A stretch of DNA of 64,000 nucleotides. Source: Patescibacteria group bacterium (GTDB lineage Bacteria > Patescibacteriota > Minisyncoccia > Phycocordibacterales > PALSA-1337). Positions 1,313 through 30,620 of this stretch are shown one piece after another. Position numbers and translations under genes: made by a program. The DNA is taken from contig JBBTTD010000005.1 of the NCBI GenBank assembly GCA_038064415.1, positions 2,149 to 66,148 on the forward strand, written 5' to 3'. Numbering within the stretch: the stretch's first letter is position 1; each line of letters starts with the position of its first letter. Under the pieces are notes generated by a model. The model worked only from the letters and a program-made list of their open reading frames with translations. It had not been told where the DNA came from and made no database searches.

Positions 1313-4036
1313 CTATTCATATTGAGCAATGAATATATCAATTAGTTCAATTATTTGATTCTTTTGGTCAATTGATAATGATCCAGACTTTTGAATAATA
1401 ATTCTTTTCTTTAATCTTTCAGTATTATCAATCACTCTCTTGTAATCTCCATTTTTTACCAGACCCTCCAAACGATCAATCCTTCTGACTATGTCCTTGG
1501 AAAGTTTTGTCGTTCCAATAAGTTGAATAACGGTATTCTTGAGCGATTCCAAAAAAGTTATCGGATCAAGCGTTGATTCAGGATTGGCTACAATGTCCAC
1601 CGAACCATCTCCGTCCACATCTATCGTGAGCGCGGAAGTAGACGAGGCGATTTTCACTGGAATTGCCGTGCCAGAAGAATTACTCGTCACTGTACTTGAA
1701 GCGATCATCAGTGGCGTCGTCGGCAATGAACTATATTCCGCGCTATCCAATACTTCTCCGCCTTTAATCCTCTCCACTTGATAGGTAAACTCTCCAACAC
1801 CCACGCCACGAATGTTCACATTATATTTTTGGCCAGAATCATCGGGTAAAGTGACATAAGTTTCGTATTGATTTTCATCATCATAAATTCTAAAATTACT
1901 TCCAGGAATTTTCGTCTCATACATTGTATAAAGTCCCTCTTCCACATCTAATTCGAGCGAGGTCGGGGTTATGCCAGTATGATTGCCGTACTGGTCATAA
2001 ACATGAAGATCTACGGGAGAGTGTGTGCTCAAAACAAGGAAAGTGTCTTCTTTACTATAATCTGGTTCGCCGATAGTCACATTTGGTATCTTGGAAATTT
2101 CATTTTCAATTGCTTTATAGTCACGGTTTGGCGAATCAACACCGATAATATTTTGAATGGCGCTCTTAGTTGCCTGTGATTCTAAAATATTAGAGTGATT
2201 AATATTCTCGCGTTCCAAGTTGGATTCCGCCTTCAAGTCTATGGCGGTGGTAGTGCCAGAATTGAAAGTCGCGCTCGGAACAACCACCGTCCCGTCGCCA
2301 AATGAAGTCAAGCTGGAATTATATGATTTATTTGAATATATAATACCTTTGGTCGTATCTTTCCCCCATCCAACTATCGCCCATCGAGCAATATTTGTCG
2401 GCCAGACAAATGGATCAAGTATTCCATGAATAATTTCTGCGGCAGTCATCAATATAGAATTTGCCCGCGAACTTATAAATGAATTCTGCGCGACCGATGA
2501 ATCAATCGGGCTTGTGGTGGGACTAGTAGCTCCGCCCGCATAAGTGATTGTCGGGCTAAAAATTTTGGTAAAATATTTGGCTGAAGGCAGAAGCGAATAG
2601 GCACTGGCCATATTCAGACCCAATTCTTTGGCCACACTTTGTTTCAAAATAGCTCCATAACCAATGGATTGACTATCACCGTGTAACAAAGCCAATATCG
2701 CTTGCGGTGTCCCTAAATATGGAACTGCCACGGAAATTACAGAGTCAATCAGATTTTCTTTACCTAAATCTTGCAAGGTTTTAACTAAATATTTTGCAAC
2801 CAAACCACCATTGCTGTGCGCGATCAAAGTAACTTTTTTTGTTTTAGATCGCGAAGCCAGATCTTCAACGGTCTCAATCAGAGAATCAGTGGTCGTCGCT
2901 CGATTCTCACGCCCCGCAACCACCTCAACTATTGACTTACGCCAGTCATAGCCAAAGGACTTCCATTCTGAAATCGTCCCGTTTTCAGAGATACCATCCA
3001 GATAAGTCATAAATGACCTATATATGTCCACAATTCCTAGCGCCTTGTCTATTGGTCCGCCAGTATATATAGACGAATCGGTGCTGGATCCATTTGAGTC
3101 TAAAAACAATTTCCTAACATCGTCGTTTCGGTTTGGCTCCCAAAGCTGATTGATTGAAGATCCCATACCAAGCAGACCAGATTCTGGTCTATACAGACGA
3201 CTAGCCTCAAGACCTGGAATAAATAATATGCTTGAGCAACAAGCAGAGATGTCAGTTGAAAAATCCGGCTCTTTGATTAGCCAAGGATCATAGGAAATTG
3301 GACCAGACAAAATACTGGCGGTTGAGGAACTAACGCTTGAATAAATCGGACCATCTGGACTTCCCCACCAATTATTTTCGGCATTTATTGTATTTGAGCT
3401 GACATTCGCAATCGCGTATCTACCGTTATTTTTTATAATTGAATTTTTTATAAATAATGATGTCGGCGGTTTTCCCAAAGCGTCTTTCAGAATAATGACG
3501 CCATCATTGGCGTTGTTTTTTATTTGACTATCAACAATATCAACATCACTACTCCAGATATACAACCCCGCGCCGGTTGAATTTGAAAATGTTGAAGTGG
3601 CTATCTTGGCGTGTGACCAATACAAAATTAGACCCGGTCCATTAGTCGTCATGTCAGTATAAGCGACATCGGCGCTGCCATTATAAATATGAATCTTATC
3701 TATACCCCCTACTTTCACATGTTCATTAGTAGTACCGTTAATTTTAATAGTGCCATCAGTAACATAAACCGCGGTTGACATATTCAATCGTTCCGGAGCC
3801 AAACTAATCGTCACGCCCGACTCAATCGTTAGGGTATGTGGCCCATTTATAAATACATCTCCACTCAATATGTACGGACTGGCGCTCTTTGTCCAAGTTA
3901 CATCAGTATCAAATGTCCCGCTGATAATAGTCCCAGCTGGGACAGGTGTCTTCGCTTGAGCGATATTAATCATGCTTGTAAATGTCAAAAACCCAACTAC
4001 AAGACCAGAAAAAATAATATAAAATATGTTTTTCAT
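1313..4036 (-). CDS. Secreted multidomain protein: N-terminal right-handed beta-helix domain plus LCAT/PGAP1-like alpha/beta-hydrolase (putative phospholipase/lipase) domain
   Basis: 907-aa ORF with N-terminal signal peptide (MKNIFYIIFSGLVVGFLTFTSMINIAQA). Beta-helix-like repeats (GTFDTDVTWT...ILSGDVFING...IKNSIIKNNGRYAI). FGYDWR motif and nucleophile elbow LIAHSNGG of LCAT-like lipases, around nt 2600-3140. Confidence 0.7.
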   Translation of the reverse strand: MKNIFYIIFSGLVVGFLTFTSMINIAQAKTPVPAGTIISGTFDTDVTWTKSASPYILSGDVFINGPHTLTIESGVTISLAPERLNMSTAVYVTDGTIKINGTTNEHVKVGGIDKIHIYNGSADVAYTDMTTNGPGLILYWSHAKIATSTFSNSTGAGLYIWSSDVDIVDSQIKNNANDGVIILKDALGKPPTSLFIKNSIIKNNGRYAIANVSSNTINAENNWWGSPDGPIYSSVSSSTASILSGPISYDPWLIKEPDFSTDISACCSSILFIPGLEASRLYRPESGLLGMGSSINQLWEPNRNDDVRKLFLDSNGSSTDSSIYTGGPIDKALGIVDIYRSFMTYLDGISENGTISEWKSFGYDWRKSIVEVVAGRENRATTTDSLIETVEDLASRSKTKKVTLIAHSNGGLVAKYLVKTLQDLGKENLIDSVISVAVPYLGTPQAILALLHGDSQSIGYGAILKQSVAKELGLNMASAYSLLPSAKYFTKIFSPTITYAGGATSPTTSPIDSSVAQNSFISSRANSILMTAAEIIHGILDPFVWPTNIARWAIVGWGKDTTKGIIYSNKSYNSSLTSFGDGTVVVPSATFNSGTTTAIDLKAESNLERENINHSNILESQATKSAIQNIIGVDSPNRDYKAIENEISKIPNVTIGEPDYSKEDTFLVLSTHSPVDLHVYDQYGNHTGITPTSLELDVEEGLYTMYETKIPGSNFRIYDDENQYETYVTLPDDSGQKYNVNIRGVGVGEFTYQVERIKGGEVLDSAEYSSLPTTPLMIASSTVTSNSSGTAIPVKIASSTSALTIDVDGDGSVDIVANPESTLDPITFLESLKNTVIQLIGTTKLSKDIVRRIDRLEGLVKNGDYKRVIDNTERLKKRIIIQKSGSLSIDQKNQIIELIDIFIAQYE

Positions 4037-4083
4037 TGCATTAATCAGTTACGAATCTAATAATGCAATTAGCGTATCAGAGT

Positions 4084-4138
4084 GAAATCAAGAAATAATA
4101 AAGATTTGATCAAGATTTGATCAAGATTCTAAAATGTG
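4084..4138. promoter_or_regulatory. Copy 1 of repeated ~55-bp promoter/operator module (GAAATCAAGAAATRATAAAGATTTGATCAAGATTTGATCAAGATT)
   Basis: Near-identical copies at 4688-4742 and 17011-17068. Contains tandem 11-bp TTGATCAAGAT units. Minus-strand reading gives TTGATC-18nt-TATTAT pointing into the 907-aa gene; plus-strand reading gives TTGATC-18nt-TAAAAT. Confidence 0.45.
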
Positions 4139-4308
4139 TCAGAACTTGAGGTAGAGACCAGGTCTCCACCTTATACATTAAACCCAAACTTCCCAACTAA
4201 ATAAAGGAGAGTAAAACTACAAAGGAGAATGACCACAAACCCGATAAAGAACTTGAAAAAGCTTTTATCAAATGGGTTTATCATGGGGATATTATAACAC
4301 AATTTTTC

Positions 4309-4345
4309 CTTGACTTTAAGAATTATTTTGGTATTATATAACTAC
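4309..4345 (+). promoter_or_regulatory. Sigma70-like promoter (TTGACT-16/17nt-TATTAT) of a putative small RNA
   Basis: Consensus-like -35/-10 hexamers seen in the sequence. About 70 nt downstream is a strong plus-strand intrinsic terminator. Confidence 0.4.
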
Positions 4346-4412
4346 AACGAAGGTCTGTGACAAATCCACCTTATGGGGAGAGACTAGAAATAGTCTATCA
4401 GTAACCTTGACC

Positions 4413-4441
4413 ACCCACCTTATGGTGGGTGGTTTTGTCTA
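4413..4441 (+). terminator. Rho-independent terminator (CCACCCACC-TTAT-GGTGGGTGG followed by TTTTGT)
   Basis: Perfect 9-bp stem, 4-nt loop, U-tract on the plus strand only. Confidence 0.65.
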
Positions 4442-4669
4442 CGAATGAATATTTATGTTTTTCTTTATTATTAGATCAAATAATTTCGATATCAATTCTT
4501 GAGGATTGTCATTATATATTCTCACTACAGATTTCTCTATATTGATGATTTCATTTTGCACAATATTTTTATTGTGTATTTGTACATAAACAAGCGCAAA
4601 ACTGGAATGGGCGGAGGTTTTGTGTACACCCGATTCGTCTATATAGACAAAATGTTTTATTTTTTCCAT
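4439..4669 (-). CDS. Small ORF, possible DUF3800-like N-terminal fragment (FVYIDESG motif)
   Basis: 76-aa ORF in an AT-rich region directly downstream, on the minus strand, of module copy 2. YIDESG resembles the DUF3800 N-terminal motif but the ORF is far shorter than that family. Could be non-coding. Confidence 0.3.
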   Translation of the reverse strand: MEKIKHFVYIDESGVHKTSAHSSFALVYVQIHNKNIVQNEIINIEKSVVRIYNDNPQELISKLFDLIIKKNINIHS

Positions 4670-4687
4670 CTCTTTACCCTATCACCT

Positions 4688-4742
4688 CGAAATCAAGAAA
4701 TGATAAAGAAACGATCAAGATTTGATCAAGATTAAAAAATGT
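4688..4742. promoter_or_regulatory. Copy 2 of repeated promoter/operator module
   Basis: About 90% identical to copies at 4084 and 17011. Confidence 0.45.
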
Positions 4743-4796
4743 GGCGTATTCCCCCATGTCCTTAGCGAGGTCTCACATCGCTAATCAACCCAAAAC

Positions 4797-4836
4797 AAAA
4801 ACCGCTCACTTCTTAGTGAAACGGTTTTTGTTTTTA
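4797..4836. terminator. Bidirectional hairpin terminator (AACCGCTCAC...GTGAAACGGTTTTTGTTTTT)
   Basis: Imperfect stem flanked by an A-run and a T-run. Sits 3' of the minus-strand gene 4854-5921 and 3' of a possible plus-strand small RNA starting near 4750. Confidence 0.5.
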
Positions 4837-4853
4837 AATATCTTAATAATTTC

Positions 4854-5921
4854 TTAACTTCCCAACTCATTTAGTTTAGCCCGTGTCTTTGGACCAACCT
4901 GTCCATATCCTTCATCTCCAGGATTAGCGATACCATGCTTGACTTGGAATTTCTGGACTGCCTTTTCGGTAAGGGAACCGAAATATGTTCCTTCATTACC
5001 TGACGACCCAACTCCTTCTGTTGTGACTTGTGTTTCAGGATCTTTATTCAGGATTTTCTGAAGATTCAGAACATTTTCATTAACGCTACCTTTTGACAAG
5101 CGTACAGTAATAACTATGGCCGTTGCCGAAGGGGCACCCGAAACAGGAGCCACGCTTAATGCAGGGACCACTGCAGGTACAACACTACCAATGGCCGAAA
5201 CTTCAGCAATCTTTGCTCGTGTTGCTGGACCGACTCTGCCTACTTGTGATATGCCATATTTTGCTTGAAATCTCTTGACTGCGCGCTCTGTGGCTGGACC
5301 AAAGAACCCATTTGCAATACCCTCGGGATATATTTCACTGAACCGCGCAAGGAACTTCTGAAGTGTCTCTACATCAGCTCCTTCGGTACCACGAGATAGA
5401 TCTTGGGTGAAAATAACAGAAACATTACTTGAGAGTGTGCATATCACTCCTGCTGGACAACCTGAAACACTTGCAGGGATAACTGGGGGGGTAGCTACAT
5501 TGGGTGTACCTCCTCCTCCAGATGATCTACTTCCACTAGTTTGTGCTGATGACACAGTACATATTGTAGTGGAAGGAGTAACATTCACTGTTCTAGTTGA
5601 ACCTGACTTAATTGAAATAGTCAGTGTGTTATTGTCTGATGAACATTCTTGAGAATAATCATTACCTCCTATACCAGTTACTGTCATGATATTTTTTTCA
5701 GCGGATTGTACGACAAGCACTGAATCAACAGGCATTGTAACAACAAAATCACCAGAATTAACCACAAGTGTCTCTACGACAGATGTTGAACCACTCACCG
5801 TTAAGTTGTATGAGCCTACACTTATTGTGGCCCCCGATGTCAAACCCACATCATTGTACGCGGCACCAACAATCACTGGCATTATTATAATAGCTAAAGC
5901 TACATATATATATTTATACAT
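4854..5921 (-). CDS. Secreted protein with two putative peptidoglycan-binding (PG_binding_1-like) domains
   Basis: 355 aa with signal peptide. Two segments matching the PG_binding_1 pattern (LQKFL...GFFGPATERAVKRFQAKYGI...GRVGPATRAKI and LQKILNKD...GTYFGSLTEKAVQKFQVKHGI...GQVGPKTRAKL). Confidence 0.7.
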   Translation of the reverse strand: MYKYIYVALAIIIMPVIVGAAYNDVGLTSGATISVGSYNLTVSGSTSVVETLVVNSGDFVVTMPVDSVLVVQSAEKNIMTVTGIGGNDYSQECSSDNNTLTISIKSGSTRTVNVTPSTTICTVSSAQTSGSRSSGGGGTPNVATPPVIPASVSGCPAGVICTLSSNVSVIFTQDLSRGTEGADVETLQKFLARFSEIYPEGIANGFFGPATERAVKRFQAKYGISQVGRVGPATRAKIAEVSAIGSVVPAVVPALSVAPVSGAPSATAIVITVRLSKGSVNENVLNLQKILNKDPETQVTTEGVGSSGNEGTYFGSLTEKAVQKFQVKHGIANPGDEGYGQVGPKTRAKLNELGS

Positions 5922-5933
5922 AGTAGTAATAGT

Positions 5934-6461
5934 TTATCGAATGCCAAAGAAGTTGAGACTTATTGCGCCCGGAGCTCGAGTGGCAGCAGAGGCATCAGCG
6001 TTGTAGATTCTAAGATTAATGGTTGCATCAGCAGTAGTTGATGCGGCCTCTACATGAAGTCCTGCAGGCATAGAGCTTGTCGCTTGTACAAAGACACGGT
6101 ATGCGTTTGTCAAACCTGTTGCTCCAGTACAGTTGAAATATGCTGATGTGGATGCTGTGATTGCAGCTGAATTAGCAATATTACAATAACCAAAGACCAT
6201 ACTATTGACAGCAGTACCAGATGAACCTACTGTAAGCGTTCCACTCGTCGTAACCGCCGCTAAAGAACTCGCACCACCGACTGTTAGAGTTCCAGCTGTC
6301 GCTTCAATATTTCCAGCTGTTGTTGTAATATTTCCGGCCGTTGAAATAGCTGTACTGATAGTCGTTACAGCAGACGCAACTGACACTACAAAAAACACTG
6401 CTACAATAATTGACAACGAGAAAGTAAGTTTATTTTGCTTTAGACTTGAAAAAGTTTTCAT
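5934..6461 (-). CDS. Small secreted Ala/Thr/Gly-rich protein
   Basis: 175 aa. Signal peptide ending VASA, then low-complexity TAGN-repeat region. Confidence 0.55.
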   Translation of the reverse strand: MKTFSSLKQNKLTFSLSIIVAVFFVVSVASAVTTISTAISTAGNITTTAGNIEATAGTLTVGGASSLAAVTTSGTLTVGSSGTAVNSMVFGYCNIANSAAITASTSAYFNCTGATGLTNAYRVFVQATSSMPAGLHVEAASTTADATINLRIYNADASAATRAPGAISLNFFGIR

Positions 6462-6641
6462 TTTTTATAAATAAGATAGTTAACTATTAATAATAGCTGA
6501 CAAGCTACTTTTAGTTCCTATATTATACACCTAAACAAACATATTACTCTATGTCAATAAACTGTGGACAACTACAAACTGATTAATTTCAGTACTGCAC
6601 AAAGGTAGACCTGTACCAATTATTTCAACACAAAAACCGCC

Positions 6642-6676
6642 CTGAGGTTTTCTCGAGGGGCGGTTTTTGTTGCGTT
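6642..6676. terminator. Bidirectional rho-independent terminator (AACCGCCC...GGGCGGTTTTTGTT)
   Basis: 8-bp GC-rich stem flanked by an A-run and a T-run, immediately 3' of the stop of gene 6734-8644. Confidence 0.6.
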
Positions 6677-6733
6677 CATTTTACGCTAGATAAGTTGAGT
6701 TTTTAACAGAACCTATGAGATTTAATTCCTTTA

Positions 6734-8644
6734 TTAAGGGAATGTAACTCCTGATGTTCTCCAGTCTAGTTCTCCAGCCATGAATGTTACAGCATATGGA
6801 GCATTTTGCTGAATACTCTCAAGTTCAACAGCATATGAACCAGGAGTAAATGCGGCTGTAGCACTGCGACCCATAATACCGAAAGAAACAGGTATATCAA
6901 CTGTTGAACCTTCAGGTAATGTAAATGTGTTGTTAGTTACAGTATAGCCAGAAGGAGCAGAGTAATCAGTCGTAGTCGCATATGAACTCAATGTCAAATC
7001 AGCTACGGCATTTCTGTACACCTTAAATCCTAGTGTAGAAGAAGAAAACATTGTAGCTACGCCTGCTGGTGAACTTGAGGCTAGAGTACCGAGTTGGATA
7101 CTACCACCAACTGCTTTTACTCTGACTGTAAAGTTAGCAGTCAAGGTTGATGTACTAACATTTGTACTCACACCATTTAATTGTGGCGCACCAGCTGTGG
7201 AAATACTCTTAGAAACAAGAGAAACTTCCAATCCACGATTTCTCATACCAATAGAATTACCAGTAGCTGTACCACTTACAGTTACACTATCTCCAATAGA
7301 ATTAACCGCGGTAATATCTGTAGTAGCGGCAATAGCAGCCACTACATTTGCGATAGTACCATTAGCACTAGTAATATCAGCTTTTACAGTAAGAGTCTTG
7401 GTAGTTCCAGCTGGAATTGTGATAATTCCATTACTGTCTGTAATAGTGGCCTTACTAGTAGCGGCTACAGAAGCATTACCTATCTCCGTTGAACCATCAA
7501 AGAGGTAAGCAGTAGTAGAGGTTGCTCCACCTGTTCCTGAACCAGTGAGGGTTACGATAATGGTAGTAAGTGTTACATTATCTTTGTCAGCTTTAACATC
7601 AAATGTCAACACTGGTAATTTGCTTTGCTCATTATCACTAGATCCATCAGCAGCAATAATATCATGCTTTAATGGAGTTGATGAATTTAAAGAAACAGTC
7701 AGTGTGGCTGAATCTGTAAGAGTAGCATCAACATTCTGGGCTCGAGTGATATCCGTGGCGGCAGCAGGAGTATATTGGGCAATACCAGCTCCGTCTACAC
7801 CACGAATTCCATTAGCGGCAAATCTAATCGTGTATGTCTCAGTATCAATGTCAGTACTATCAATTGATGGTCTGACGTCAACTCTAATAGTAAGAACCTT
7901 TGTTGCACCCTTTGCAATTACATAATTCATTCCGCCAATTGTAACGTAGTAGTTACTTGCACTAAGTACAGCCGTGGAAGAATTCAAATCAGAAGAAGCT
8001 AAAACGGCTCCTGTATCATCTGTTACATAAATCTTTGAGTAGATCTTGTTCCAAATAGTAGTAGCTGTTCCCAAATCCAATTTGACTCTTTCTATCCTTA
8101 TATCAGATAGACTTGCTGTAACTTTTGCGGCAAGAACTGGAACATTTGTTTGTCCTTCATAAATAGCAGAGGACAGGCCTGCATTTGTCTGTACCGCTGA
8201 AATTGATCCTTCAACACCAATAGTTGTTATTCCGCCACCTGTTACTGATGTACCTCCACCAATTGGTGTACATGTGTATCCAACTGGACAGTTAACTGCA
8301 ACTGGAATGTTTGGAGTACATACTAATCCTGCTGGGCAGGCAACTGACACACCACCATTCAAAGCAGCTCTCGTTAGAGGACCTACGAAGCCAGTGTTAG
8401 GAATACCATGAGCGGCTTGGTAGAGCTTAACTGCAGCTAGAGTTTGTGAACCGAAATAACCCTTAGCAACACCGCTAACGGTGATAGCTGGAATATTGAA
8501 ACCAGCCGAGATAAGAGCCGTCTGAAGAGCGACGACATTGTCACCTGTTGAACCTACTGAAAGGTTGAAAGTGAAAGTCTGCGCGCCTACGATCGAAGTG
8601 AAAGCCAAAACGGCAACACCCGAAGCGATAAGAAACTTTTTCAT
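6734..8644 (-). CDS. Large secreted/surface protein: N-terminal PG_binding_1-like domain, Cys-rich linker, long Thr/Ser-rich beta-rich region
   Basis: 636 aa with signal peptide. N-terminal VALQTALISAGF...GYFGSQTLAAVKLYQAAHGIPNTGFVGPLTRAAL matches the peptidoglycan-binding domain pattern. CPAGLVCTPN...CPVGYTCTP Cys pairs. Remainder T/S/A/G-rich repeats. Confidence 0.75.
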   Translation of the reverse strand: MKKFLIASGVAVLAFTSIVGAQTFTFNLSVGSTGDNVVALQTALISAGFNIPAITVSGVAKGYFGSQTLAAVKLYQAAHGIPNTGFVGPLTRAALNGGVSVACPAGLVCTPNIPVAVNCPVGYTCTPIGGGTSVTGGGITTIGVEGSISAVQTNAGLSSAIYEGQTNVPVLAAKVTASLSDIRIERVKLDLGTATTIWNKIYSKIYVTDDTGAVLASSDLNSSTAVLSASNYYVTIGGMNYVIAKGATKVLTIRVDVRPSIDSTDIDTETYTIRFAANGIRGVDGAGIAQYTPAAATDITRAQNVDATLTDSATLTVSLNSSTPLKHDIIAADGSSDNEQSKLPVLTFDVKADKDNVTLTTIIVTLTGSGTGGATSTTAYLFDGSTEIGNASVAATSKATITDSNGIITIPAGTTKTLTVKADITSANGTIANVVAAIAATTDITAVNSIGDSVTVSGTATGNSIGMRNRGLEVSLVSKSISTAGAPQLNGVSTNVSTSTLTANFTVRVKAVGGSIQLGTLASSSPAGVATMFSSSTLGFKVYRNAVADLTLSSYATTTDYSAPSGYTVTNNTFTLPEGSTVDIPVSFGIMGRSATAAFTPGSYAVELESIQQNAPYAVTFMAGELDWRTSGVTFP

Positions 8645-9195
8645 TTTGATTTTTATAATTTAACGCACCTTCCCCTATTTAATAATAAAGACGAGGGAAA
8701 TTAATGCGGTTTGTAAACTAATAATACTTTCCACATTTTCCGCATACGCTATCGACACGCAAACGAAAAATTTTGTGGCAATTTAGATATTAAATAATTG
8801 AACAAGAGAACGATTTAACAATCCAACGGTTAAATTAATAAAATTGAACTACTAAACAATTCAACTGATCAATCATCTAACATGATTGAACTTTTGACTA
8901 TCTATTATGTTGTCAAAGTTCGTTACTTGTCCGTTGTCGATTCTTTAAAATCGGTACGCGACTCCCACAACACTATCGAAATGTTCTGGGTACGAATGCA
9001 TAAATAAATTTACACACTCGTTACAAAACATTATACCCTACCAGTAGATAGCATTGCAAAACACTATGTGGATAACGGATCAAACCGTAAAAACTTACGA
9101 AAAATGGCTACATTTATTAACTTATAAGTAATATGGGTATGTTAGCTGTAATACGGCTCAAAGTCAAGGAAACCTTTCATTTTCGTGATTAACTT

Positions 9196-9221
9196 GTCAT
9201 TCCCGCGAAAACGGGAATGAC
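9196..9221. repeat. Palindromic hairpin element GTCATTCCCG-CGAAAA-CGGGAATGAC (family 2; second copy at 20602-20624)
   Basis: Perfect 10-bp inverted repeat, 3' of gene 9274-10065. No U-tract. Confidence 0.6.
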
Positions 9222-9273
9222 ACAACGATACCAAAGAAATGACTAACCCCGTGAAGCCCAGAAACAATTGGTC

Positions 9274-10065
9274 TTATTTCAACGAATACCTACTCCATCT
9301 CCTCTCTCCTTCTTTCTTTACCACCCCCCTATCCATAAGTTCTATCAATTCCCGCTGAATAGTCTTCTCACTACAATCCTTTATGACCTTTGAAAAGTCT
9401 TTAATGGTAAGGTTACTTTGTCCTTTAAGGACATTGATAATTGATTCCTGTCTTTGTGTCTTTTTGACCTGATTATTCTCATGACCTTTTGAAAACCTTA
9501 ATTTATCTGAAGAAATTGGATTTTCAAAACTTGCCCTGTCCTTGATCGGGCCTTGATTATTGATCATCGGTAACTTACCACCCATCTTAAATCCCGACGC
9601 AAACATATCTCCTGTCCTAAAGAAATTCTCTGAAAGGACATAACCGGCATTTTCCGCGTTTTCGGCAAGACGATCACGGAGCATTCCAACAATGTTATCA
9701 ATTTCTTTAACTAATAGTATGTGATTCATTTCACTAATCATGTTGGAAATACGAGCCACATTGAGGAGTGAAATAGTTTCTAGCGCGGAGCTAAATAGGG
9801 ATTGAATTATTGAACTTTTATCTCCAGGAACATTGCTTGACGCTATAAAGGACGAAGAAAGCAATTCCATGCCATGATCGCGCAATTCCCATTTCATTGG
9901 TTCATCGTCCTTTAGGAGTCCTGAAACCAAATAAAGTGCCGCGGTGATTTTTTCTGTCTTTTTGAATATATATAAAAGATATTCTTCAGCAGTGAAAAAA
10001 CCAAGTGATTTCCACTTTAATGGATCATTAAAAGCTGGCTGAATATTGTTGTCTTTTTTGTCCAT
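9274..10065 (-). CDS. Hypothetical protein with C-terminal winged-helix (DeoR/HTH_11-like) DNA-binding domain
   Basis: 263 aa. C-terminus TIKDFSKVIKDCSEKTIQRELIELMDRGVVKKEGERRWSRYSL resembles wHTH recognition helices. N-terminal 200 aa unassigned. Confidence 0.55.
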   Translation of the reverse strand: MDKKDNNIQPAFNDPLKWKSLGFFTAEEYLLYIFKKTEKITAALYLVSGLLKDDEPMKWELRDHGMELLSSSFIASSNVPGDKSSIIQSLFSSALETISLLNVARISNMISEMNHILLVKEIDNIVGMLRDRLAENAENAGYVLSENFFRTGDMFASGFKMGGKLPMINNQGPIKDRASFENPISSDKLRFSKGHENNQVKKTQRQESIINVLKGQSNLTIKDFSKVIKDCSEKTIQRELIELMDRGVVKKEGERRWSRYSLK

Positions 10066-16830: not shown

Positions 16831-17010
16831 TTGTTTTGCAGTCAGCGACCCTAGTGGAATGTTCCCTTCAGGACCTCTTGATAAGAGGGCTTACTGCGAT
16901 TACTTATAATATGATACGAGACTAACATGGAATTTACCTCTACGCAAGAGTATTGTATTCCTCGCAGGTTAGGAATGATATGTGGTGGAGGTGATTTGAA
17001 TATAACATCC
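16831..17010 (-). promoter_or_regulatory. Putative rpsF 5' leader (possible S6:S18 autoregulatory element)
   Basis: 180-bp ORF-free segment between module copy 3 and the rpsF start. Established knowledge of rpsF leaders; no motif verified. Confidence 0.25.
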
Positions 17011-17068
17011 CGAAATCAAGAAATGATAAAGATTTGATCAAGATTTGATCAAGATTGGAAAATGTTGT
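17011..17068. promoter_or_regulatory. Copy 3 of repeated promoter/operator module
   Basis: GAAATCAAGAAATGATAAAGATTTGATCAAGATTTGATCAAGATTGGAAAATGT. Minus-strand -35 TTGATC / -10 TATCAT points to the rpsF-ssb-rpsR operon. Confidence 0.45.
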
Positions 17069-19480: not shown

Positions 19481-20599
19481 CTAATTTTGAACAGAATTTT
19501 TAACCGCTTCCCTCTCGGCTATTTCAACTTTTTTATATTTCTCAATATCATGAATATATTCCATGAAAGCGGCCGAAAGGGGCACCGCGATCAACGCGCC
19601 AAGCACTCCGGCTAATTTTGCGCCGATTACCAGAGCCAAAATAACCACAATCGGCGATATGCCAACCACTTTTTTGACCACAAGCGGATAAAATAATTGG
19701 CTCTCAAATTGGTAAATAATAAGATAAAGACCAATTAAAAGAAAACCTGTGCCAATGCCATTTTCGGTGAATGCCACGAGAATCGCCGGAACTGACGCGA
19801 TCATTGGGCCAAAGACTGGGATAATTTCCAAAATTGCGGCGAATAAAGCGAGCAGTAACGCGTGTTTAATTCCGACTACCATAAGCACAAGGTATACGAG
19901 TACACCGACGACGATGCCGAGCAAAATCTGACCCTGAAGCCATAGGGCGATCTTACGCTGTGAGCGTTTCCATAAATCTATAATGTAGTTGTGATGTTTT
20001 ACCGGGGTGACTATTCGCAAGAAATCATCAACCCCATCTTCTTTAACTGCCAAATAAAATGACAAAACGATTATTAAAATCAATGACAAAAATCCTCCGA
20101 AAATAACACCCGCGGTCTTAAAGACTCCCCCGCCAGTACCCAAAATTAAATTCTGAAAACCTTTAACATATTCCGCGACCGAAATTGTTTGTCCGACCAC
20201 TGGTGGTGAATTTGAACTAAGACTAATACCAATATCACGAATCGGACTCCAAATGTCATCTAAAGATATAGTACTCGGTAGACCATTCAAAAAATCACTG
20301 GCTTCATTGAGCACTAGAGGCATAAAGAATACAACTATTCCAGCCAAGACCGTGGCAATGATAACATAGATTAAAATCACGCTGATGATTCGGTGTACTT
20401 TATGTCTCTTGAGACGACGAATTACTGGTTCAATAGCTGAAGCTAGGATGATCGCGGCCAAAACCACTAAAAGTACATCGGAAATATAGTAAGCGGCAAC
20501 CAATAATATGGCAAAAAGGAAAAATCTGACAATCGTTCCTGTATTGAGATTTATGTGAATATCTCGGGATAAGTCGGACATGGAATTATTGTAACGCAT
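19481..20599 (-). CDS. AI-2E family transporter (PerM/YhhT-like permease)
   Basis: 372 aa, 8 predicted TM helices, sequence pattern of UPF0118/AI-2E permeases. Confidence 0.8.
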   Translation of the reverse strand: MRYNNSMSDLSRDIHINLNTGTIVRFFLFAILLVAAYYISDVLLVVLAAIILASAIEPVIRRLKRHKVHRIISVILIYVIIATVLAGIVVFFMPLVLNEASDFLNGLPSTISLDDIWSPIRDIGISLSSNSPPVVGQTISVAEYVKGFQNLILGTGGGVFKTAGVIFGGFLSLILIIVLSFYLAVKEDGVDDFLRIVTPVKHHNYIIDLWKRSQRKIALWLQGQILLGIVVGVLVYLVLMVVGIKHALLLALFAAILEIIPVFGPMIASVPAILVAFTENGIGTGFLLIGLYLIIYQFESQLFYPLVVKKVVGISPIVVILALVIGAKLAGVLGALIAVPLSAAFMEYIHDIEKYKKVEIAEREAVKNSVQN

Positions 20600-20601
20600 T
20601 T

Positions 20602-20624
20602 GTCATTCCCGCGAAAGCGGGAAT
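20602..20624. repeat. Palindromic hairpin GTCATTCCCGC-GAAA-GCGGGAAT (family 2, GNRA-type loop)
   Basis: Same stem sequence as 9196-9221. Lies in the 45-bp gap between two minus-strand genes. Confidence 0.6.
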
Positions 20625-24293: not shown

Positions 24294-26240
24294 TCACTTA
24301 ACAACCACCCCCTGTCCATCCTTATAGTTCGGATCTGTACTAAAACGCGTGGAAAGATAATCTTGTTTGCTCTGAAGTTGCGCTCCCGTGAAGCTATCGG
24401 TAGCCGTAAGTATGGATTGATTAACCAAAGTCGGATTGTCTCCTTCTTGAATAACACTTGGCAAGAATGAGATTTGGAAATTGACTTCTCTCCTTCTAGA
24501 TGAATCAATCGTGTAGGTACTGACATTGCCGATATTCCAAGTCACTGTTCCACTATTTTCATCATAAGTAACCGACTCACTTGAAGGACTGACGACATTC
24601 AGCCATTTAACATATGGCGGCAAGGTGGCGATAACTTTGGCACCACCAACCGCGCTTGAAGTATTATCAACTGTCCAAACTACCGTATAAGTCGTCGGTT
24701 GTTCAACTTTTGGAGGAACTGGTCCTGTATTCGTAAATGGTCCGATAGTGCGCACAACGCGACCTGTTAGAGAAACATTGGAAGATACTCGGGTCGTTCT
24801 AGAAACCGAAGAAGAGAGCACGCTTGGTACATTTGATTCTTGAGTGCGATTGCCGGCAACACCGGCGGTAAAAGTAATGATTGGGTTAACGATTGGATTG
24901 GTAACGGTACTTTTGTCAGTGGGTATTATTGAGAAAGATACTGTACCGCTTTTCCCGGCGTCCACGGAAGCAAAATCACTATTAGTTTGTTGACTCCAAA
25001 TAATCTCATCTGTGGCGGAATTGTAGTAACCAACATCTGGCGCGACGGATGTTTTTTCATAAGCAGATCCAGAAAGTTTAACGGTGATTACCATGTTTGA
25101 AACCGTAGTCGTCAAATTATTGAACCAACCGACGCTGATACGCTCACTCCGACCAAACTGACTGACAAAATCACTTGAAGCGTCATTACCATCAATCAAT
25201 ATGCCCAAAGAAATAAACGGTTTCTGAATAGTCATGATTTGATCGGTGGACATGTATTGCGTGCCGATTGATTTTGGATCAGTTGAACTCTGCGCGCCCG
25301 CGATGAAACGAAATACTCGTGTATCATTATCTTCACCCTGAATCTTTCCGCGAATAGTCACTATTCGTTCTCCACCAGGTGGAATATCGCCAATTTTCCA
25401 AGTAGCATTGTCAGAAAGTGATTTGATGTCGGCTGATATAAAACTGAAACCAAAAGGATAACTGGCCTTCAGTAAAACATTTTTAAGGACATCCTGGGAA
25501 TTTGATCTGAGACTGACCTTCATGTCAAATTCTTGACCAGAAGTGATTTCATTAAACGAAGAAGCCGTCAAAAGTATTGGCGAGGAATTGATCAAAACAT
25601 CGTAGGAAGTCTTTTTGGTAAATAAAGAGCTTGATCCTTTTATTTTATAAGTAACGCTGACTTCAATAGATTTTTGGAGATTTTCTTCACCAAACATTAT
25701 GGCACTAACTGTTTTGCGCGCGGAACCGCCCGCAGGAATGTCACCGAACAATTCGCGAAATGTTTTCAATTCTTGAGTGGAATCTTTGGAATCGGTCGTA
25801 CCAGCGGGAAAATCAATCGCCAAGTCAGCGCCCTGCAAATCAACATTGTTTTTATTCAAAACAGTTATATCAAATGAAACGATCGCTCCGCCCGGAATGG
25901 AAACAGGGCCACTGATGGAAATATCTATATTATTCGCGGAAATGAGATTGGAACCATTATAAAAAATGTAAGCCCCAATGCCGACGGCGACAATACAAAA
26001 TATCAGTGAGCCAATCAATAGTTTTGTAAAAAATGACATGGAATGATCTTCATAATGCGTGTTTAAAATAGGTTTGAGATCTTCATCTTTGGGGTGTTCC
26101 CAATCGGTTCTAACTTGACTATCACTGGGCGTGAAGCGAAGTTTGCGGCGAGTCCGTACATCAGGAGTATTGCGCGAATACAGCGATTTTTTCAACTCCT
26201 CTATACGATTTTTCTCTTCACTTGGGGGCATATCAATCAA
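24294..26240 (-). CDS. Large membrane-anchored hypothetical protein (cytoplasmic N-terminus, one TM, beta-rich extracellular region)
   Basis: 648 aa. TM segment FFTKLLIGSLIFCIVAVGIGAYIF after a ~70-aa charged N-terminus. No recognised catalytic motif. Confidence 0.65.
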   Translation of the reverse strand: MIDMPPSEEKNRIEELKKSLYSRNTPDVRTRRKLRFTPSDSQVRTDWEHPKDEDLKPILNTHYEDHSMSFFTKLLIGSLIFCIVAVGIGAYIFYNGSNLISANNIDISISGPVSIPGGAIVSFDITVLNKNNVDLQGADLAIDFPAGTTDSKDSTQELKTFRELFGDIPAGGSARKTVSAIMFGEENLQKSIEVSVTYKIKGSSSLFTKKTSYDVLINSSPILLTASSFNEITSGQEFDMKVSLRSNSQDVLKNVLLKASYPFGFSFISADIKSLSDNATWKIGDIPPGGERIVTIRGKIQGEDNDTRVFRFIAGAQSSTDPKSIGTQYMSTDQIMTIQKPFISLGILIDGNDASSDFVSQFGRSERISVGWFNNLTTTVSNMVITVKLSGSAYEKTSVAPDVGYYNSATDEIIWSQQTNSDFASVDAGKSGTVSFSIIPTDKSTVTNPIVNPIITFTAGVAGNRTQESNVPSVLSSSVSRTTRVSSNVSLTGRVVRTIGPFTNTGPVPPKVEQPTTYTVVWTVDNTSSAVGGAKVIATLPPYVKWLNVVSPSSESVTYDENSGTVTWNIGNVSTYTIDSSRRREVNFQISFLPSVIQEGDNPTLVNQSILTATDSFTGAQLQSKQDYLSTRFSTDPNYKDGQGVVVK

Positions 26241-26963: not shown

Positions 26964-29900
26964 CTAAATATCTAACTTAAAAGTTGATCCACCAACGATT
27001 ATTCCCTCTTTTTGTATAGGTTTGAATGTAATGTCACCAAGCAAGCTCACTGATGAAATTTTCGTACTATTTTTCTCAATAAATTTTCTACCCGCATCAT
27101 CAGTTTCAATCAAAAGAATCACTTTATCATTTACGCTTAAACCTTTCTCCTTGCGCAAGTCTTGAATAGCACGAATAAGCTCGCGAACCATGCCCTCTTC
27201 TTTCAATTCTGGAGTAATATTCACATCAAGCTGTACATCTGTTTCAATCTTTGCTCCAAAGGCAATCTCTTTGACATTAACTTCATCTTTTATTAGATCA
27301 ACGAGTTGACTATTGACCATTGAACCTTGGTCATTCTTAATCCTCAAAGATTGAAGTGGTTGTCTGACATTGATCTTTGTCATCATTCGCGCCTCAAGAC
27401 CTTTGGAAGCCAGATCTCTAACCAGTTTCATACTTTTAATCAGTTCCGAGTCAACAGCACCAGCCGTCGGCCATAATTCCAAATGGACGCTTTGAATGGA
27501 GTCGCTATTTGAACCATTTATGTCATCCCTGATTTGTAATTCTTGGTTTTTGATTTTTCTGTATATTTCCTCCGCGATAAACGGCGTAAACGGCGCGAGC
27601 AACTTTGAAACCTGAAGTAAAATAAATCTGGTCGTCTCAAGCGCTGAATTTTTATCTGATTCATTATCGCCCTTGAATCGCTCACGCGACCTCCTCAAAT
27701 ACCAAGTAGAAATATCGTCGGTAAGATCCATTAGTGGCCAAGAAGCGCGATCAAGTTCACCGGATTCAAGTCCGACGGTCACGGCTGTGATAGTTTCATT
27801 CAGTCGCGCGATAATCCATTGATCTAGTACATTTTGTGATTCTACTTTTGACTTTTGACTTTTGACTTTTGACTGATCTTTATACATCTCATAAAACGAC
27901 ACGACATTTAACAATCGGTTGATCAATTTTTTTGTTATTTCATCAACCCCCTTTTCACTGAATCGCAAATCCTGCCCACGAACAACTGGTGAAGACAATA
28001 AATAGTAACGCAATGAATCCGCGCCATATTTATCAACAAGAGACATCGGATTAGGATAATTATTTTTCCTTTTTGCCATCTTCTGCCCATCTTCTGCCAA
28101 GACTAAACCATTAACAATAACTTTTTTGTATGGGGCCTTGCCAAATAAAGCCACCCCTAAAACGAGCATTGAGTAGAACCAGCCACGAGTCTGGTCTACC
28201 CCTTCCGCGATGAAATCAGCCGGATAGCCCTGCGATTTTTTGAACCAACTGGATTCTGGTTCAAATATCCGTGCGAATCTACCTTGTGTGTCCTGCGCAC
28301 TCTCAAACGGATAATGATTTTCTCCATAAGGCATAGATCCCGACTCAAGCCAGCAATCAAAGACATCTGGTACTCTAACTAATTTATTTCCTTCGGAAGT
28401 TTTTAATCCCAAATCGTCAATAAATGGTCTATGTAGATCAAGTTCATATTCGGAATTGTGTGGCAGTGGCGTGAAATCAAGTTTTTTTACTTCGGCATTC
28501 AAAAGAAATTCTTCGTGTCCACGAAATATTAGACTTTGTTCACGATTCATCCCTTGCGCCACGGTCATTAAAAGAAATCCCGGGGTCTCGTGAGTTATTA
28601 TTAGAATATTTTTGTCCTGATATTTTCGCTCCAAATCATAAAGAAAATCACCCATGCGTTTTTTGATCTCAACATAAGTCTCGCCGCCTTCTGGACTAAC
28701 TACAAAACGATCCTTGTCCGCGAATTGCTTAAAAAATAATTCAATACTTTTGCCATCCATAACGCCACTTTCCATCTCACGGATTCTATCGTCGGTACGA
28801 ATAATATTTTTGTTCCAACCAAGTCTATCGCGTAAAATTTCCATAGTATCTTGCGTACGCACAAATGGAGAAACAAAAACCAAGTCAAATTTGATGTTAC
28901 TCAATGATTTGGCGGCTTTTTCTACCTGTTGTCTACCGTTCAGTGTCAAATGATTTGGCGCCTTAGAATCTCCACTCAAAATACCTTCAACATTACTATC
29001 CGCCTCGCCATGGCGCATTATCCAATAATTATTTTTGGCCTTACTGAATTTCTTCAAATCTCCAACAGAACCCATAACATGATATCTTTCGCGTGATTCT
29101 TGAGTGTCATTTCGCGCTTTTGACTTTTCATCTTTTTCTTCCTTCCACACCGGTATCGGAGCACCCCAAAACCTAGAACGCGAAATCGCCCAATCACGCG
29201 CCCCTTCCAGCCAATTGCCAAATCGCGCCGAACCAACCTCGGGTGGCACCCAAGTAATTTTTTTGTTTTCCGCGACCAGTTTGTCTCTGATATCCGTGAC
29301 TTTCACAAACCAAGACGAGGTGGCGTAATTTAAAAGAGGCGTATCACAGCGCCAACAATGCGGATATGGGTGAACTAGTTTTTCCTTGGCAAAAAGTAAA
29401 TCTTTGCGCGCCAAAAATTTAATTATTTCAATATCTGTTTTTTGATGAGCATCTTTTTCATTTTCTGTATCTATCGGTTTGACACGCAATCCCGCGAAAT
29501 CAGTAACCTCTTTTTTGAATGTTCCGTCAATTGAAACATGTTGGACAAATGGTAAATTGTTCTTTAATGATAGGTCATAATCATCAGCGCCAAATGCTGG
29601 AGCAATATGAACAATGCCCGTACCATCTTCTGTTGTGACAAAATCCGCGCCGTAAATCTTCCAGCCATGTTCGCGATTTTTTAGATTCGGATCTCTTGAA
29701 TAATAATCAAAAAGTGGTTTGTAGGATTTGCCAATTAATGATAAACCTTTGAAAGATTCAACAACTTCGTATTTTTTGTCCTTCAGCACAGAAAGTTGAT
29801 TTCTTGCGAGAATGAAAAACTTGGATAAATTAGTTATGTCGTCAATAATTCTAATCTTCACATAATCAATATTGGTACTGATTGCCAAAGCCACATTCCC

Positions 29901-30620
29901 TGGTAGAGTCCAAGGTGTAGTTGTCCAAGCAAGGATATATGTGCCCGGTTCATTTATAAGTTCAAACTTGGCAGTAACTGAAATGTCCGTAATATCCTTA
30001 TATCCCTGCGCAACCTCAAAGTTTGACAATGTCGTTTCGCATCGCGGACACAAATTCATTAACTTGAATCCCTCATAAATCAAACCTCTGTCATGCAACC
30101 GCTTGAAAATCCACCAGACTGTTTCAGTGTAACTTGCGTCCATGGTGCGATAATCATGATCCATGTCAACCCAACGCCCCAAGCGAGGCACGATTTTACG
30201 CCATTCATCAGCATAACGCATTACACTTTCGCGAGCCGCCTGGTTAAATTTCTCAATGCCATAATCAACTATCTCTTTCTTACTTTTCAGACCAAGCTCT
30301 TTTTCAACCAGATTTTCCACCGGTAAACCATGGCAATCCCAACCCCATCGTCTTTCAACATGATACCCTTGCATTGTTTTCCAGCGTGGAATTGTATCTT
30401 TGATTATTCCAGCCAAAATATGACCGTAATGTGGCAGACCGTTGGCAAAAGGCGGACCATCATAAAAAGTGAATTTACCATTAGTTGATTTTTTCTCTAG
30501 AGACTTCTCAAAAATACCCCTCTCTTTCCAAAAGGCTAATATTCGTTCTTCGCGCTCGGCATGAGTTGATTTTTTGTTATTTTCTTCTGGATTAACCATG
30601 AAATGTATGGGTTGAATCAT
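26964..30620 (-). CDS. ileS: Isoleucyl-tRNA synthetase carrying an inserted histidine-phosphatase (PGAM-like) domain
   Basis: 1218 aa. HIGH (PHYGH), WTTTPWTLP, WAISRSRFWGAPIP, KMAKR (KMSKS-like). After the PIPVW motif, residues ~493-725 (nt ~28446-29144) form an extra domain with RHG signature IMRHGEADSN, FVSPFVRTQDT and ITHETPG. Confidence 0.93.
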   Translation of the reverse strand: MIQPIHFMVNPEENNKKSTHAEREERILAFWKERGIFEKSLEKKSTNGKFTFYDGPPFANGLPHYGHILAGIIKDTIPRWKTMQGYHVERRWGWDCHGLPVENLVEKELGLKSKKEIVDYGIEKFNQAARESVMRYADEWRKIVPRLGRWVDMDHDYRTMDASYTETVWWIFKRLHDRGLIYEGFKLMNLCPRCETTLSNFEVAQGYKDITDISVTAKFELINEPGTYILAWTTTPWTLPGNVALAISTNIDYVKIRIIDDITNLSKFFILARNQLSVLKDKKYEVVESFKGLSLIGKSYKPLFDYYSRDPNLKNREHGWKIYGADFVTTEDGTGIVHIAPAFGADDYDLSLKNNLPFVQHVSIDGTFKKEVTDFAGLRVKPIDTENEKDAHQKTDIEIIKFLARKDLLFAKEKLVHPYPHCWRCDTPLLNYATSSWFVKVTDIRDKLVAENKKITWVPPEVGSARFGNWLEGARDWAISRSRFWGAPIPVWKEEKDEKSKARNDTQESRERYHVMGSVGDLKKFSKAKNNYWIMRHGEADSNVEGILSGDSKAPNHLTLNGRQQVEKAAKSLSNIKFDLVFVSPFVRTQDTMEILRDRLGWNKNIIRTDDRIREMESGVMDGKSIELFFKQFADKDRFVVSPEGGETYVEIKKRMGDFLYDLERKYQDKNILIITHETPGFLLMTVAQGMNREQSLIFRGHEEFLLNAEVKKLDFTPLPHNSEYELDLHRPFIDDLGLKTSEGNKLVRVPDVFDCWLESGSMPYGENHYPFESAQDTQGRFARIFEPESSWFKKSQGYPADFIAEGVDQTRGWFYSMLVLGVALFGKAPYKKVIVNGLVLAEDGQKMAKRKNNYPNPMSLVDKYGADSLRYYLLSSPVVRGQDLRFSEKGVDEITKKLINRLLNVVSFYEMYKDQSKVKSQKSKVESQNVLDQWIIARLNETITAVTVGLESGELDRASWPLMDLTDDISTWYLRRSRERFKGDNESDKNSALETTRFILLQVSKLLAPFTPFIAEEIYRKIKNQELQIRDDINGSNSDSIQSVHLELWPTAGAVDSELIKSMKLVRDLASKGLEARMMTKINVRQPLQSLRIKNDQGSMVNSQLVDLIKDEVNVKEIAFGAKIETDVQLDVNITPELKEEGMVRELIRAIQDLRKEKGLSVNDKVILLIETDDAGRKFIEKNSTKISSVSLLGDITFKPIQKEGIIVGGSTFKLDI

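Follow-up and report, generated by a model that had tools for sequence, protein, structure and literature searches.

Enzymes of the LCAT family, among them LCAT, LPLA2 (lysosomal phospholipase A2), PDAT and the plant LCAT-like PLA1, attack the acyl ester of glycerophospholipids and hand the acyl group to water or to a lipid hydroxyl. LCAT, PDAT and LPLA2 are natural transacylases, and to our knowledge the characterised PF02450 members all act on lipids. Here we describe a predicted bacterial relative, a 907-amino-acid (aa) protein encoded on the minus strand, together with three other putatively secreted proteins of 355, 175 and 636 aa, in a 64,000-nucleotide (nt) stretch of the Patescibacteria contig JBBTTD010000005.1 (this whole stretch is hereafter the window). 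We tentatively propose that these genes represent an envelope locus found throughout the Paceibacteria, at which an LCAT-type enzyme would release lysolipids or fatty acids beside wall-anchored surface proteins.

Bacteria of the Candidate Phyla Radiation (CPR) have been reported to be without lipid synthesis, and CPR-size fractions to be rich in lysolipids; the lipidomics pointed to lysolipid uptake, while phospholipase A was mentioned only generically, as one route by which lysolipids arise, with no enzyme named (PMC7242380). For Vampirococcus, another CPR lineage, a secreted phospholipase has been proposed for host-lipid harvest (PMC8080830). In archaea-parasitising Paceibacteria, Kuroda et al. 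(2024) proposed host attachment by secreted proteins with peptidoglycan-binding domains (PGBD) and immunoglobulin (Ig)-like domains, which are among the most highly expressed in the cultured organisms (PMC10936435). Our literature search for LCAT-family enzymes in CPR found no paper linking the two, and public annotations of the family are generic: 'right-handed parallel beta-helix repeat-containing protein', 'pimeloyl-ACP methyl ester carboxylesterase' or 'hypothetical'.

A preliminary description of the window had listed the four minus-strand open reading frames (ORFs), each with a signal peptide, and all four were recovered at exactly the positions given there (Table 1). We checked them against the public gene calls of the identical contig (92 kb, from a metagenome-assembled genome (MAG) of 0.1-µm-filtered groundwater that NCBI labels 'Patescibacteria group bacterium'), which carry the same genes. 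Signal peptides were predicted by inspection and a simple heuristic script rather than a dedicated predictor; by both, the four N-termini look signal-like, with a basic n-region, a hydrophobic core and a small-x-small site, putatively cleaved at AQA/K, VGA/A, ASA/V and VGA/Q in the 907-, 355-, 175- and 636-aa proteins, respectively.

The LCAT-like hydrolase that had been proposed for the 907-aa protein from its FGYDWR and AHSNGG motifs was borne out by profile, fold and conservation. Pfam LCAT (PF02450) matched residues 342-494 well above threshold (E = 4.1e-19, 69.5 bits against a cut-off of 21), and the same domain is carried by all 120 homologues listed. An AlphaFold2 (AF2) model built with 116 homologues (predicted local distance difference test (pLDDT) 90.6; predicted template-modelling score (pTM) 0.74) begins with an N-terminal helix and a low-pLDDT segment at 23-33, followed by the domains given in Table 1. 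Foldseek comparison of this model with PDB placed LPLA2 and LCAT on top (E 6e-10 to 2e-7; TMt 0.62-0.68), with ~420 aligned columns against targets of 377 residues, a coverage that suggests that the cap and membrane-binding subdomains may be present too; Tle4, BlEst2 (propeptide form) and PlaB followed at lower ranks. In a viral structure library the best matches were LCAT-family phospholipases of eukaryotic viruses, and tailspike matches were weak. With the hydrolase domain isolated, HMMER aligned LIAHSNG with the LIGHSLG of LCAT at the nucleophile elbow and paired ISVAVPYLGTPQAILALLHGDSQSI with LCAT as well; the family-specific, GAPWGGS-like segment after the elbow, AVPYLGTPQAILALLHGDSQSI, was also aligned, the post-nucleophile alignment spanning AVPYLGT...HGDSQSI. 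By Pfam threshold, motifs and predicted fold, then, the 907-aa protein is a member of the LCAT family.

Conservation was assessed in sets reaching down to ~30% identity. The motifs FGYDWR, AHSNGG (S408) and GDGT (D581) are invariant across homologues: S408, D581, H614 and YDWR (Y363, D364, W365 and R366) are retained in 116 of 116 database homologues and in 76 of 76 full-length genes from species genomes, and so are the PG loop after strand 1 and a vicinal cysteine pair, C266-C267. Mean identity to the window protein falls from 51% in the hydrolase to 40% in the β-sandwich, 30% in the β-helix and 26% in the helical tail, the least conserved part, more than half of which is missing in 14 of 75 homologues. 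This pattern indicates strong purifying selection on an LCAT-fold core with an invariant predicted triad. Because the triad, YDWR and PG loop are invariant and the hydrolase is the best-conserved domain, we consider that the protein is probably an active enzyme, and likely an exported lipid esterase or transacylase. The C266-C267 pair (window 3236-3241, minus strand) comprises the sole cysteines of the protein and lies directly before hydrolase strand 1; it may act as a vicinal disulfide, a redox switch or an acyl thiol.

The β-helix ahead of the hydrolase, also foreseen in the preliminary description, is supported by the AF2 model, by Foldseek matches to AlgG, polygalacturonase(s) and Pel9A, and by PF13229 recorded in many homologues, but the window protein itself gave no Pfam Beta_helix match at E ≤ 1. 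Its positions that are invariant or at least 90% conserved (within 36-250) are occupied by W, S, P, Y, G, L, T and N, and none by D, E, K, R or H; lacking conserved acidic or basic residues, it is probably a non-catalytic binding or spacer module, not a second enzyme. The β-sandwich and helical tail would be accessory domains. The sandwich carries a conserved STHSPVxLHVYDxxGNHTG and a DxDGDGxxD motif (D681 invariant, H686 and D806 each in 74 of 76), the latter a putative Ca-binding loop.

The family is broad and confined. At least 120 full-length homologues were found at E < 1e-188, all from Patescibacteria/Paceibacteria-type MAGs, and a scan of one genome per species found a relative encoded in at least 482 species genomes of Paceibacteria/Parcubacteria. 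A profile search of 1.84 billion representatives returned 2,859 clusters (50% identity) at E ≤ 1e-30, of which the top 150 were near full length. The fusion of β-helix and LCAT-like lipase had been called a non-standard architecture; so it is when set against characterised proteins, but within Paceibacteria it is the norm. Titles of the records with homologues include Taylorbacteria, Kaiserbacteria, Nomurabacteria, Paceibacterota, Parcubacteria and Minisyncoccia. Many third-party annotation assemblies (L005, L007-L010 and others) are titled 'uncultured Candidatus Saccharibacteria' while showing the same Paceibacteria-type locus; the title is probably a placeholder, because RecA of MAGs so named (up to 96% identical to the window RecA) is as close to that of the window as Taylorbacteria RecA (94%).

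Gene order was compared in 80 non-redundant loci, each with a single LCAT-type gene, and on the ftsK side in the 46 that extend far enough. All 46 have the same order: a divergent ftsK, a ~260-aa helix-turn-helix (HTH)-like gene, and an Ig protein of more than 550 aa with N-terminal PG_binding. On the other side, 63 of the 80 loci have rplJ no more than 1.5 kb downstream of the LCAT gene, on the same strand in 48 and the opposite one in 15; in these 15 (L013, L020, L024, L025 and L027 among them) rplJ-rplL is inverted relative to the window, adjacency being kept and orientation not. The syntenic block thus reads ftsK, HTH gene, peptidoglycan-anchored Ig protein, variable middle, LCAT gene, rplJL. 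The middle holds nothing recognisable in some loci; in others it has no enzymes but one or two extra PG_binding_1 proteins bearing Ig-like, TIG, fn3, PKD or LTD domains; the pair of 175- and 355-aa proteins occurs in some lineages only, and one case (L063) has unrelated mobile- or toxin-like genes. The enzyme is the constant element, accompanied by the Ig stalk wherever the stretch from ftsK to rplJ is unbroken; the 175- and 355-aa proteins can be missing. It had been asked whether the cluster might be universally conserved housekeeping wall machinery: it is conserved lineage-wide between ftsK and rplJL, but it matches no known cell-wall machinery. Judged by gene order, the locus behaves like conserved envelope equipment, not an accessory weapon, although class-wide conservation would be compatible with a host-directed role too, since the lineage is obligately host-dependent.

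In several lineages glycosylation-type genes lie in or beside the locus, a hint that the Thr/Ser-rich surface proteins may carry glycans. Six loci (L011 at 7182-9784, L014, L016, L065, L068 and L069) have, inside or adjoining them, a Wzy_C+TPR membrane protein together with a PsbP-like one, PMT_2 with GT2 is embedded in one (L018, 4067-6522), and a Kaiserbacteria contig (L086, 760-2766) has the order Wzy_C, 175-aa-family protein, PG_binding protein, LCAT. In a Parcubacteria locus (L075, 4923-9998) the LCAT gene follows what appears, by inspection only, to be a TasA/SipW-type fibre operon, recognised by its ...GATTAFFSDTETS... signal peptides and a GSMEP signal peptidase.

The PG_binding_1 (PF01471) modules that had been assigned to two of the neighbours were recovered by Pfam: two copies in the 355-aa protein (E = 3e-20, 72.6 bits against a cut-off of 23) and one at the N-terminus of the 636-aa protein (E = 5e-14, 52.6 bits, same cut-off). 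Orthologues of the 355-aa type were present in L001, L018, L044 and L085 only. The AF2 model of the 636-aa protein (pLDDT 85.8) has a helical PG_binding_1 domain, a disordered linker and ~4 Ig-like β-sandwiches, the last giving form to the long Thr/Ser-rich β region noticed earlier. Foldseek returned PrgB Ig-like domains, antigen I/II C-domains, UafA, FnBPA and integrin legs, all at low TM, and the model is that of a generic wall-displayed Ig stalk. A 'Cys-rich knot' had also been described here; the cysteines are present, but as two short CPxGxxC hairpins within the low-confidence linker (pLDDT < 50) and in only 37 of 120 family members. At the C-terminus (window 6734-6781, minus strand) M-x-G-E-x-D-W-R-T-x-x-V-x-F-P is invariant or near-invariant in 107 homologues. 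The conserved end of the stalk suggests a partner-binding tip. A check for sortase motifs, which the preliminary description had recommended, found an LPXTG motif with hydrophobic stretch and charged C-terminal tail in none of the four proteins; anchoring to the cell's own peptidoglycan would therefore be non-covalent, through PG_binding_1.

The 175-aa protein is Ala/Thr-rich as described (Ala 18%, Thr 15%, Ser 13%) and matched nothing in Pfam or NCBIfam. Its family, with 73 homologues detected, is restricted to Patescibacteria and has no Pfam domain; within the same locus, members occur in L001, L018, L085 and L086. Directly after the signal-peptide core an A-[VA]-TTIST-x-[IV]-x-T-x-G motif (residues 31-43) is invariant family-wide, and might serve in processing, glycosylation or strand exchange. 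The family also has a variable stretch of Thr/Gly/Ala repeats, a pair of invariant cysteines and a conserved C-terminus. On inspection we rejected a type IV pilin, since there is no G/F-x-x-x-E and the conserved motif comes after, not before, the hydrophobic segment. Also rejected was a fusion of the 175- and 355-aa proteins in the 574-aa protein of L003, which shows no resemblance to members of the 175-aa family, its domains being T2SS-T3SS_pil_N and a C-terminal PG_binding_1.

The four genes had been called consecutive. Their order is as described, but an 817-nt spacer (4037-4853) parts the LCAT gene from the 355-aa gene and holds two copies of a 70-nt repeat and a 76-aa DUF3800-like ORF, called as a gene in the public record, that is not part of the system. 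The first repeat copy, as the preliminary description had it, lies upstream of the lipase gene, 33 nt before its start. The repeat has a tandem AATCTTGATCA core, found four times against zero expected by chance, and contains a σ70-like TTGATC-18-TATTAT; it was absent from the 86 related loci in which it was sought. Downstream of both the 355-aa gene and the remnant ORF come hairpins with T-runs. Because of the promoter-like module upstream and these hairpins in the spacer, the LCAT gene probably has its own promoter, and a single operon of four genes is conceivable but not supported. Nor could the proposal of one four-gene apparatus be substantiated: the 175- and 355-aa types are variable, LCAT is sometimes alone, and it has its own promoter-like module. 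A different, 40-nt element, containing the hairpin TCCCGCGAAAACGGGA, occurs at 9179-9218 and 20585-20624, the former copy between the HTH-like gene and the 636-aa gene. The product of that HTH-like gene (263 aa) gave a Pfam HTH_DeoR match below the cut-off (E = 0.007), is syntenic in the 46 loci at 33-79% identity, and is possibly a regulator.

Table 1. Features at the locus, in window coordinates (nt); triad and domain limits are predictions
Feature	Position	Strand	Basis or content
907-aa exported multidomain enzyme (predicted)	1313..4036	-	ORF; signal peptide, β-helix, LCAT/LPLA2-like α/β-hydrolase, β-sandwich, helical tail
Signal peptide of 907-aa protein, residues 1-28 (...INIAQA/KTP)	3953..4036	-	uncharged run 4-23, then AxA site
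Right-handed parallel β-helix, residues ~36-250	3287..3931	-	AF2 strand ladder, Foldseek, PF13229 in homologues
LCAT/LPLA2-family α/β-hydrolase, residues ~266-650	2087..3241	-	Pfam, LCAT alignment, invariant residues
Putative triad codons Ser408, Asp581, His614	2813-2815, 2294-2296, 2195-2197	-	invariance
β-sandwich, residues ~660-820	1577..2059	-	AF2 strands 665-817
C-terminal helical bundle, residues ~825-907	1316..1564	-	AF2 helices 825-840, 844-861, 889-906
70-nt promoter-like repeat module	4069..4138	-	direct-repeat family D1; 33 nt upstream of LCAT start codon
Further copies of 70-nt module	4674-4743, 16997-17066		upstream of DUF3800 remnant; 167 nt upstream of rpsF
76-aa ORF, probable DUF3800 remnant	4439..4669	-	Pfam DUF3800 E 0.0078, under cut-off
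355-aa secreted protein (predicted)	4854..5921	-	β-rich N-domain and two C-terminal PG_binding_1 modules
175-aa Ala/Thr/Ser-rich secreted protein (predicted)	5934..6461	-	ORF; Patescibacteria-only family
636-aa secreted protein (predicted)	6734..8644	-	PG_binding_1 (nt 8360-8548), Cys-hairpin linker, ~4 Ig-like β-sandwiches, conserved C-terminal tip
263-aa neighbour upstream of 636-aa gene	9274..10065	-	weak C-terminal winged-HTH

Elsewhere in the window, a 648-aa protein with a DUF11 repeat (24294-26240, minus strand) is probably another surface protein, and a 1218-aa IleRS-like class I tRNA synthetase (26964-30620, minus strand) has an unusual insertion, a histidine-phosphatase domain (His_Phos_1), at residues 533-699 (E = 2.8e-29).

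Our reading of the locus is as follows. A Sec-exported enzyme of ~900 aa, with an LCAT/LPLA2-family hydrolase and a predicted Ser408-Asp581-His614 triad at its core, would cleave the acyl ester of glycerophospholipids, as family precedent suggests, and pass the acyl group on, as a phospholipase A to water or as a transacylase to a hydroxyl acceptor. Its neighbours would be secreted and held non-covalently on the cell's own peptidoglycan, as a conserved ~640-aa Ig stalk with variable partners, here the 175- and 355-aa proteins, and the enzyme would act outside the membrane within this layer of wall-anchored proteins, releasing lysolipids or fatty acids from membranes of neighbours or the host, or from the cell's own. 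Here we infer export, self-wall anchoring, lipid substrate, biological role and functional coupling of the four genes from sequence. We put the probability of a lineage-wide Paceibacteria envelope locus of this kind at roughly 45%. The proposed lipid release would fit bacteria reported to be without lipid synthesis and rich in lysolipids, and host-lipid harvest or membrane attack by the enzyme is plausible. A stronger version, that it is the missing lipid-acquisition step, a class-wide and near-essential phospholipase A or transacylase stripping the membranes of hosts or neighbours of lysolipids or acyl chains, we regard as doubtful.

Several observations weigh against the proposed envelope locus. 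Identity to characterised LCAT-family enzymes is only ~14-16% in the Foldseek alignments, a full-length alignment profile found nothing among PDB sequences at E ≤ 0.01, and the sequence relation to LCAT became visible only with the hydrolase domain isolated. A β-helix beside an esterase would also suit a glycan-directed activity. The spacer, with its hairpins and separate promoter-like module, stands between the LCAT gene and those for the PGBD proteins, and the LCAT gene is found alone among housekeeping genes in L055, L081 and L082. Synteny reaches well past the cluster, to recA, efp, ftsK, rplJL and a mechanosensitive (MS) channel, and because of that reach it may mirror a generally static core genome rather than coupling. 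The PGBD proteins that Kuroda et al. found highly expressed may not be orthologous to the 636-aa protein, since their genes are not beside ftsK.

Part of this evidence also speaks for the alternative that there is no system at all, only four independent secreted proteins that are neighbours through a rarely rearranged chromosome region: the synteny runs from recA to the MS channel and takes in many genes unrelated to one another, the content between the PGBD-Ig and LCAT genes is variable, including the mobile- or toxin-like inserts of L063, and LCAT genes occur alone or, in the window, behind their own promoter-like module and hairpins. We consider this rather unlikely, as the 175-aa family, a PGBD protein and LCAT recur together in differing surroundings (L086, Kaiserbacteria; L085), and the gap is usually filled by another surface or glycan-related protein.

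Alternatively, the enzyme might remodel the cell's own envelope as a housekeeping function, either turning outer-leaflet lipids into the lysolipids of CPR or transferring acyl groups to glycans or glycoproteins of the surface, in which case the β-helix would hold the acceptor. The class-wide conservation within a housekeeping neighbourhood is in keeping with this, as are the promoter-like module shared with rpsF, the glycan-assembly genes (Wzy_C+TPR, PMT_2+GT2) embedded in several lineages and the transacylases known in the LCAT family. Lysolipid enrichment in CPR (PMC7242380) would be accounted for too. Yet no glycosylation genes were found in the cluster (1313-10065) or in ten other window ORFs scanned, and the β-helix is without conserved charged binding or catalytic residues, so that we hold self-remodelling to be unlikely.

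Less probable still is a carbohydrate esterase, whose β-helix would bind a polysaccharide (wall, capsule or host glycan) from which the hydrolase removes O-acyl groups, the likeness to LCAT being one of fold ancestry. The β-helix does resemble AlgG, pectate lyases and polygalacturonases, the neighbours do carry peptidoglycan-binding domains, and the Joint Genome Institute (JGI) names the family 'pimeloyl-ACP methyl ester carboxylesterase', a generic esterase call; but the structural matches cover nearly the whole LPLA2/LCAT chain, beyond the hydrolase core, the family-specific YDWR and post-nucleophile motifs are invariant, and characterised PF02450 members act on lipids. Least probable is an antibacterial or anti-host lipase toxin that lyses host membranes in the manner of the type VI secretion system (T6SS) Tle effectors, an idea favoured by the structural match to Tle4, by weak Pfam matches of Tle3 and PlaB type and by the epibiotic or parasitic life, with host surface deformation, of cultured Paceibacteria (PMC10936435), but one that must contend with the weakness of the Tle3 and Tle4 matches, with the lack of T6SS, other secretion-system or immunity genes as neighbours in the window or the 80 loci, with one LCAT-type gene per locus in a ribosomal-gene neighbourhood unlike that of accessory toxin loci, and with the absence of detected defence or toxin families. 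PADLOC defence models gave marginal matches only (LmuA, E = 8e-4, at the hydrolase elbow, and HTH-type models for the 263-aa protein), and we rejected a defence-system or phage-depolymerase origin on these matches and on those in the viral library.

If the proposed envelope locus is a source of harvested lipid, it would supply membrane lipids to bacteria that make no fatty acids and would explain the lysolipid enrichment of CPR. The enzyme family bears on the source of membrane lipids in CPR/Patescibacteria, where fatty-acid and phospholipid synthesis are missing, and is a concrete, testable candidate, with predicted export, an invariant triad, membership of a lipid-acting enzyme family and presence in hundreds of species. 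Should the enzyme modify the cell's own envelope instead, it would mark a step in Paceibacteria envelope biogenesis that is conserved yet uncharacterised. The Ig stalk next to it is a candidate major surface component of Paceibacteria cells. The domain calls at the locus are recoverable by routine annotation.

Among described surface proteins comparable to the 636-aa protein, the PGBD/Ig-like proteins of Kuroda et al. come from the same bacterial class and share a signal peptide, a PG-binding domain and Ig-like folds. Their genes do not adjoin ftsK in their own genomes, and one (PMX_810_sub_00350) has different neighbours, for which reasons we rejected the idea that the 636-aa protein is the counterpart of the highly expressed PGBD proteins in that study. 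With the Gram-positive Ig-fold adhesins (PrgB, 8beg; antigen I/II; UafA; FnBPA) the 636-aa protein shares a tandem Ig-like stalk standing off the wall, unlike them being anchored by an N-terminal PG_binding_1 domain instead of LPXTG and sortase; TM values of 0.10-0.23 denote a generic likeness of fold class, and no ligand-binding head domain was identified.

For the 907-aa enzyme, the T6SS Tle effectors (Tle4, PDB 4r1d; Tle3, PF24322) are comparable in being exported lipases that work where cells meet, and show a weak likeness in structure and profile (Tle4, E = 4.8e-6, TMt 0.33; Tle3, E = 0.048, 13.6 bits, under the threshold of 27), but the LCAT gene is a core syntenic gene and not, as theirs are, accessory. 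The C-terminal domain of BlEst2, a lipase of Bacillus licheniformis, is an autoinhibitory propeptide. BlEst2 (PDB 6wpx) resembles the 907-aa protein in being a secreted bacterial α/β-hydrolase followed by a C-terminal β-sandwich (E = 2.6e-5 over ~630 columns, at a low TM of 0.17/0.32), and differs in having no β-helix.

LPLA2 (PLA2G15) and LCAT (PDB 4x90, 4x97 and 6mvd) match best in structure, with almost the whole target chain aligned. Against these the window protein stands out as bacterial and predicted to be Sec-exported, and we know of no characterised LCAT-family member with an N-terminal β-helix, a C-terminal β-sandwich and a helical tail. Vertebrate LCAT and LPLA2 typically, if not by strict definition, have a disulfide in the membrane-binding subdomain, which cannot have a counterpart in the 907-aa protein because its only two cysteines are adjacent. 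Common to all are the AHSxG elbow, YDWR, the G-D-G-T motif of the Asp and the order Ser-Asp-His, and the predicted triad is spaced much as in the known enzymes, with 173 residues from Ser to Asp and 33 from Asp to His in the 907-aa protein, close to the ~162-164 and 32 of LPLA2 and LCAT.

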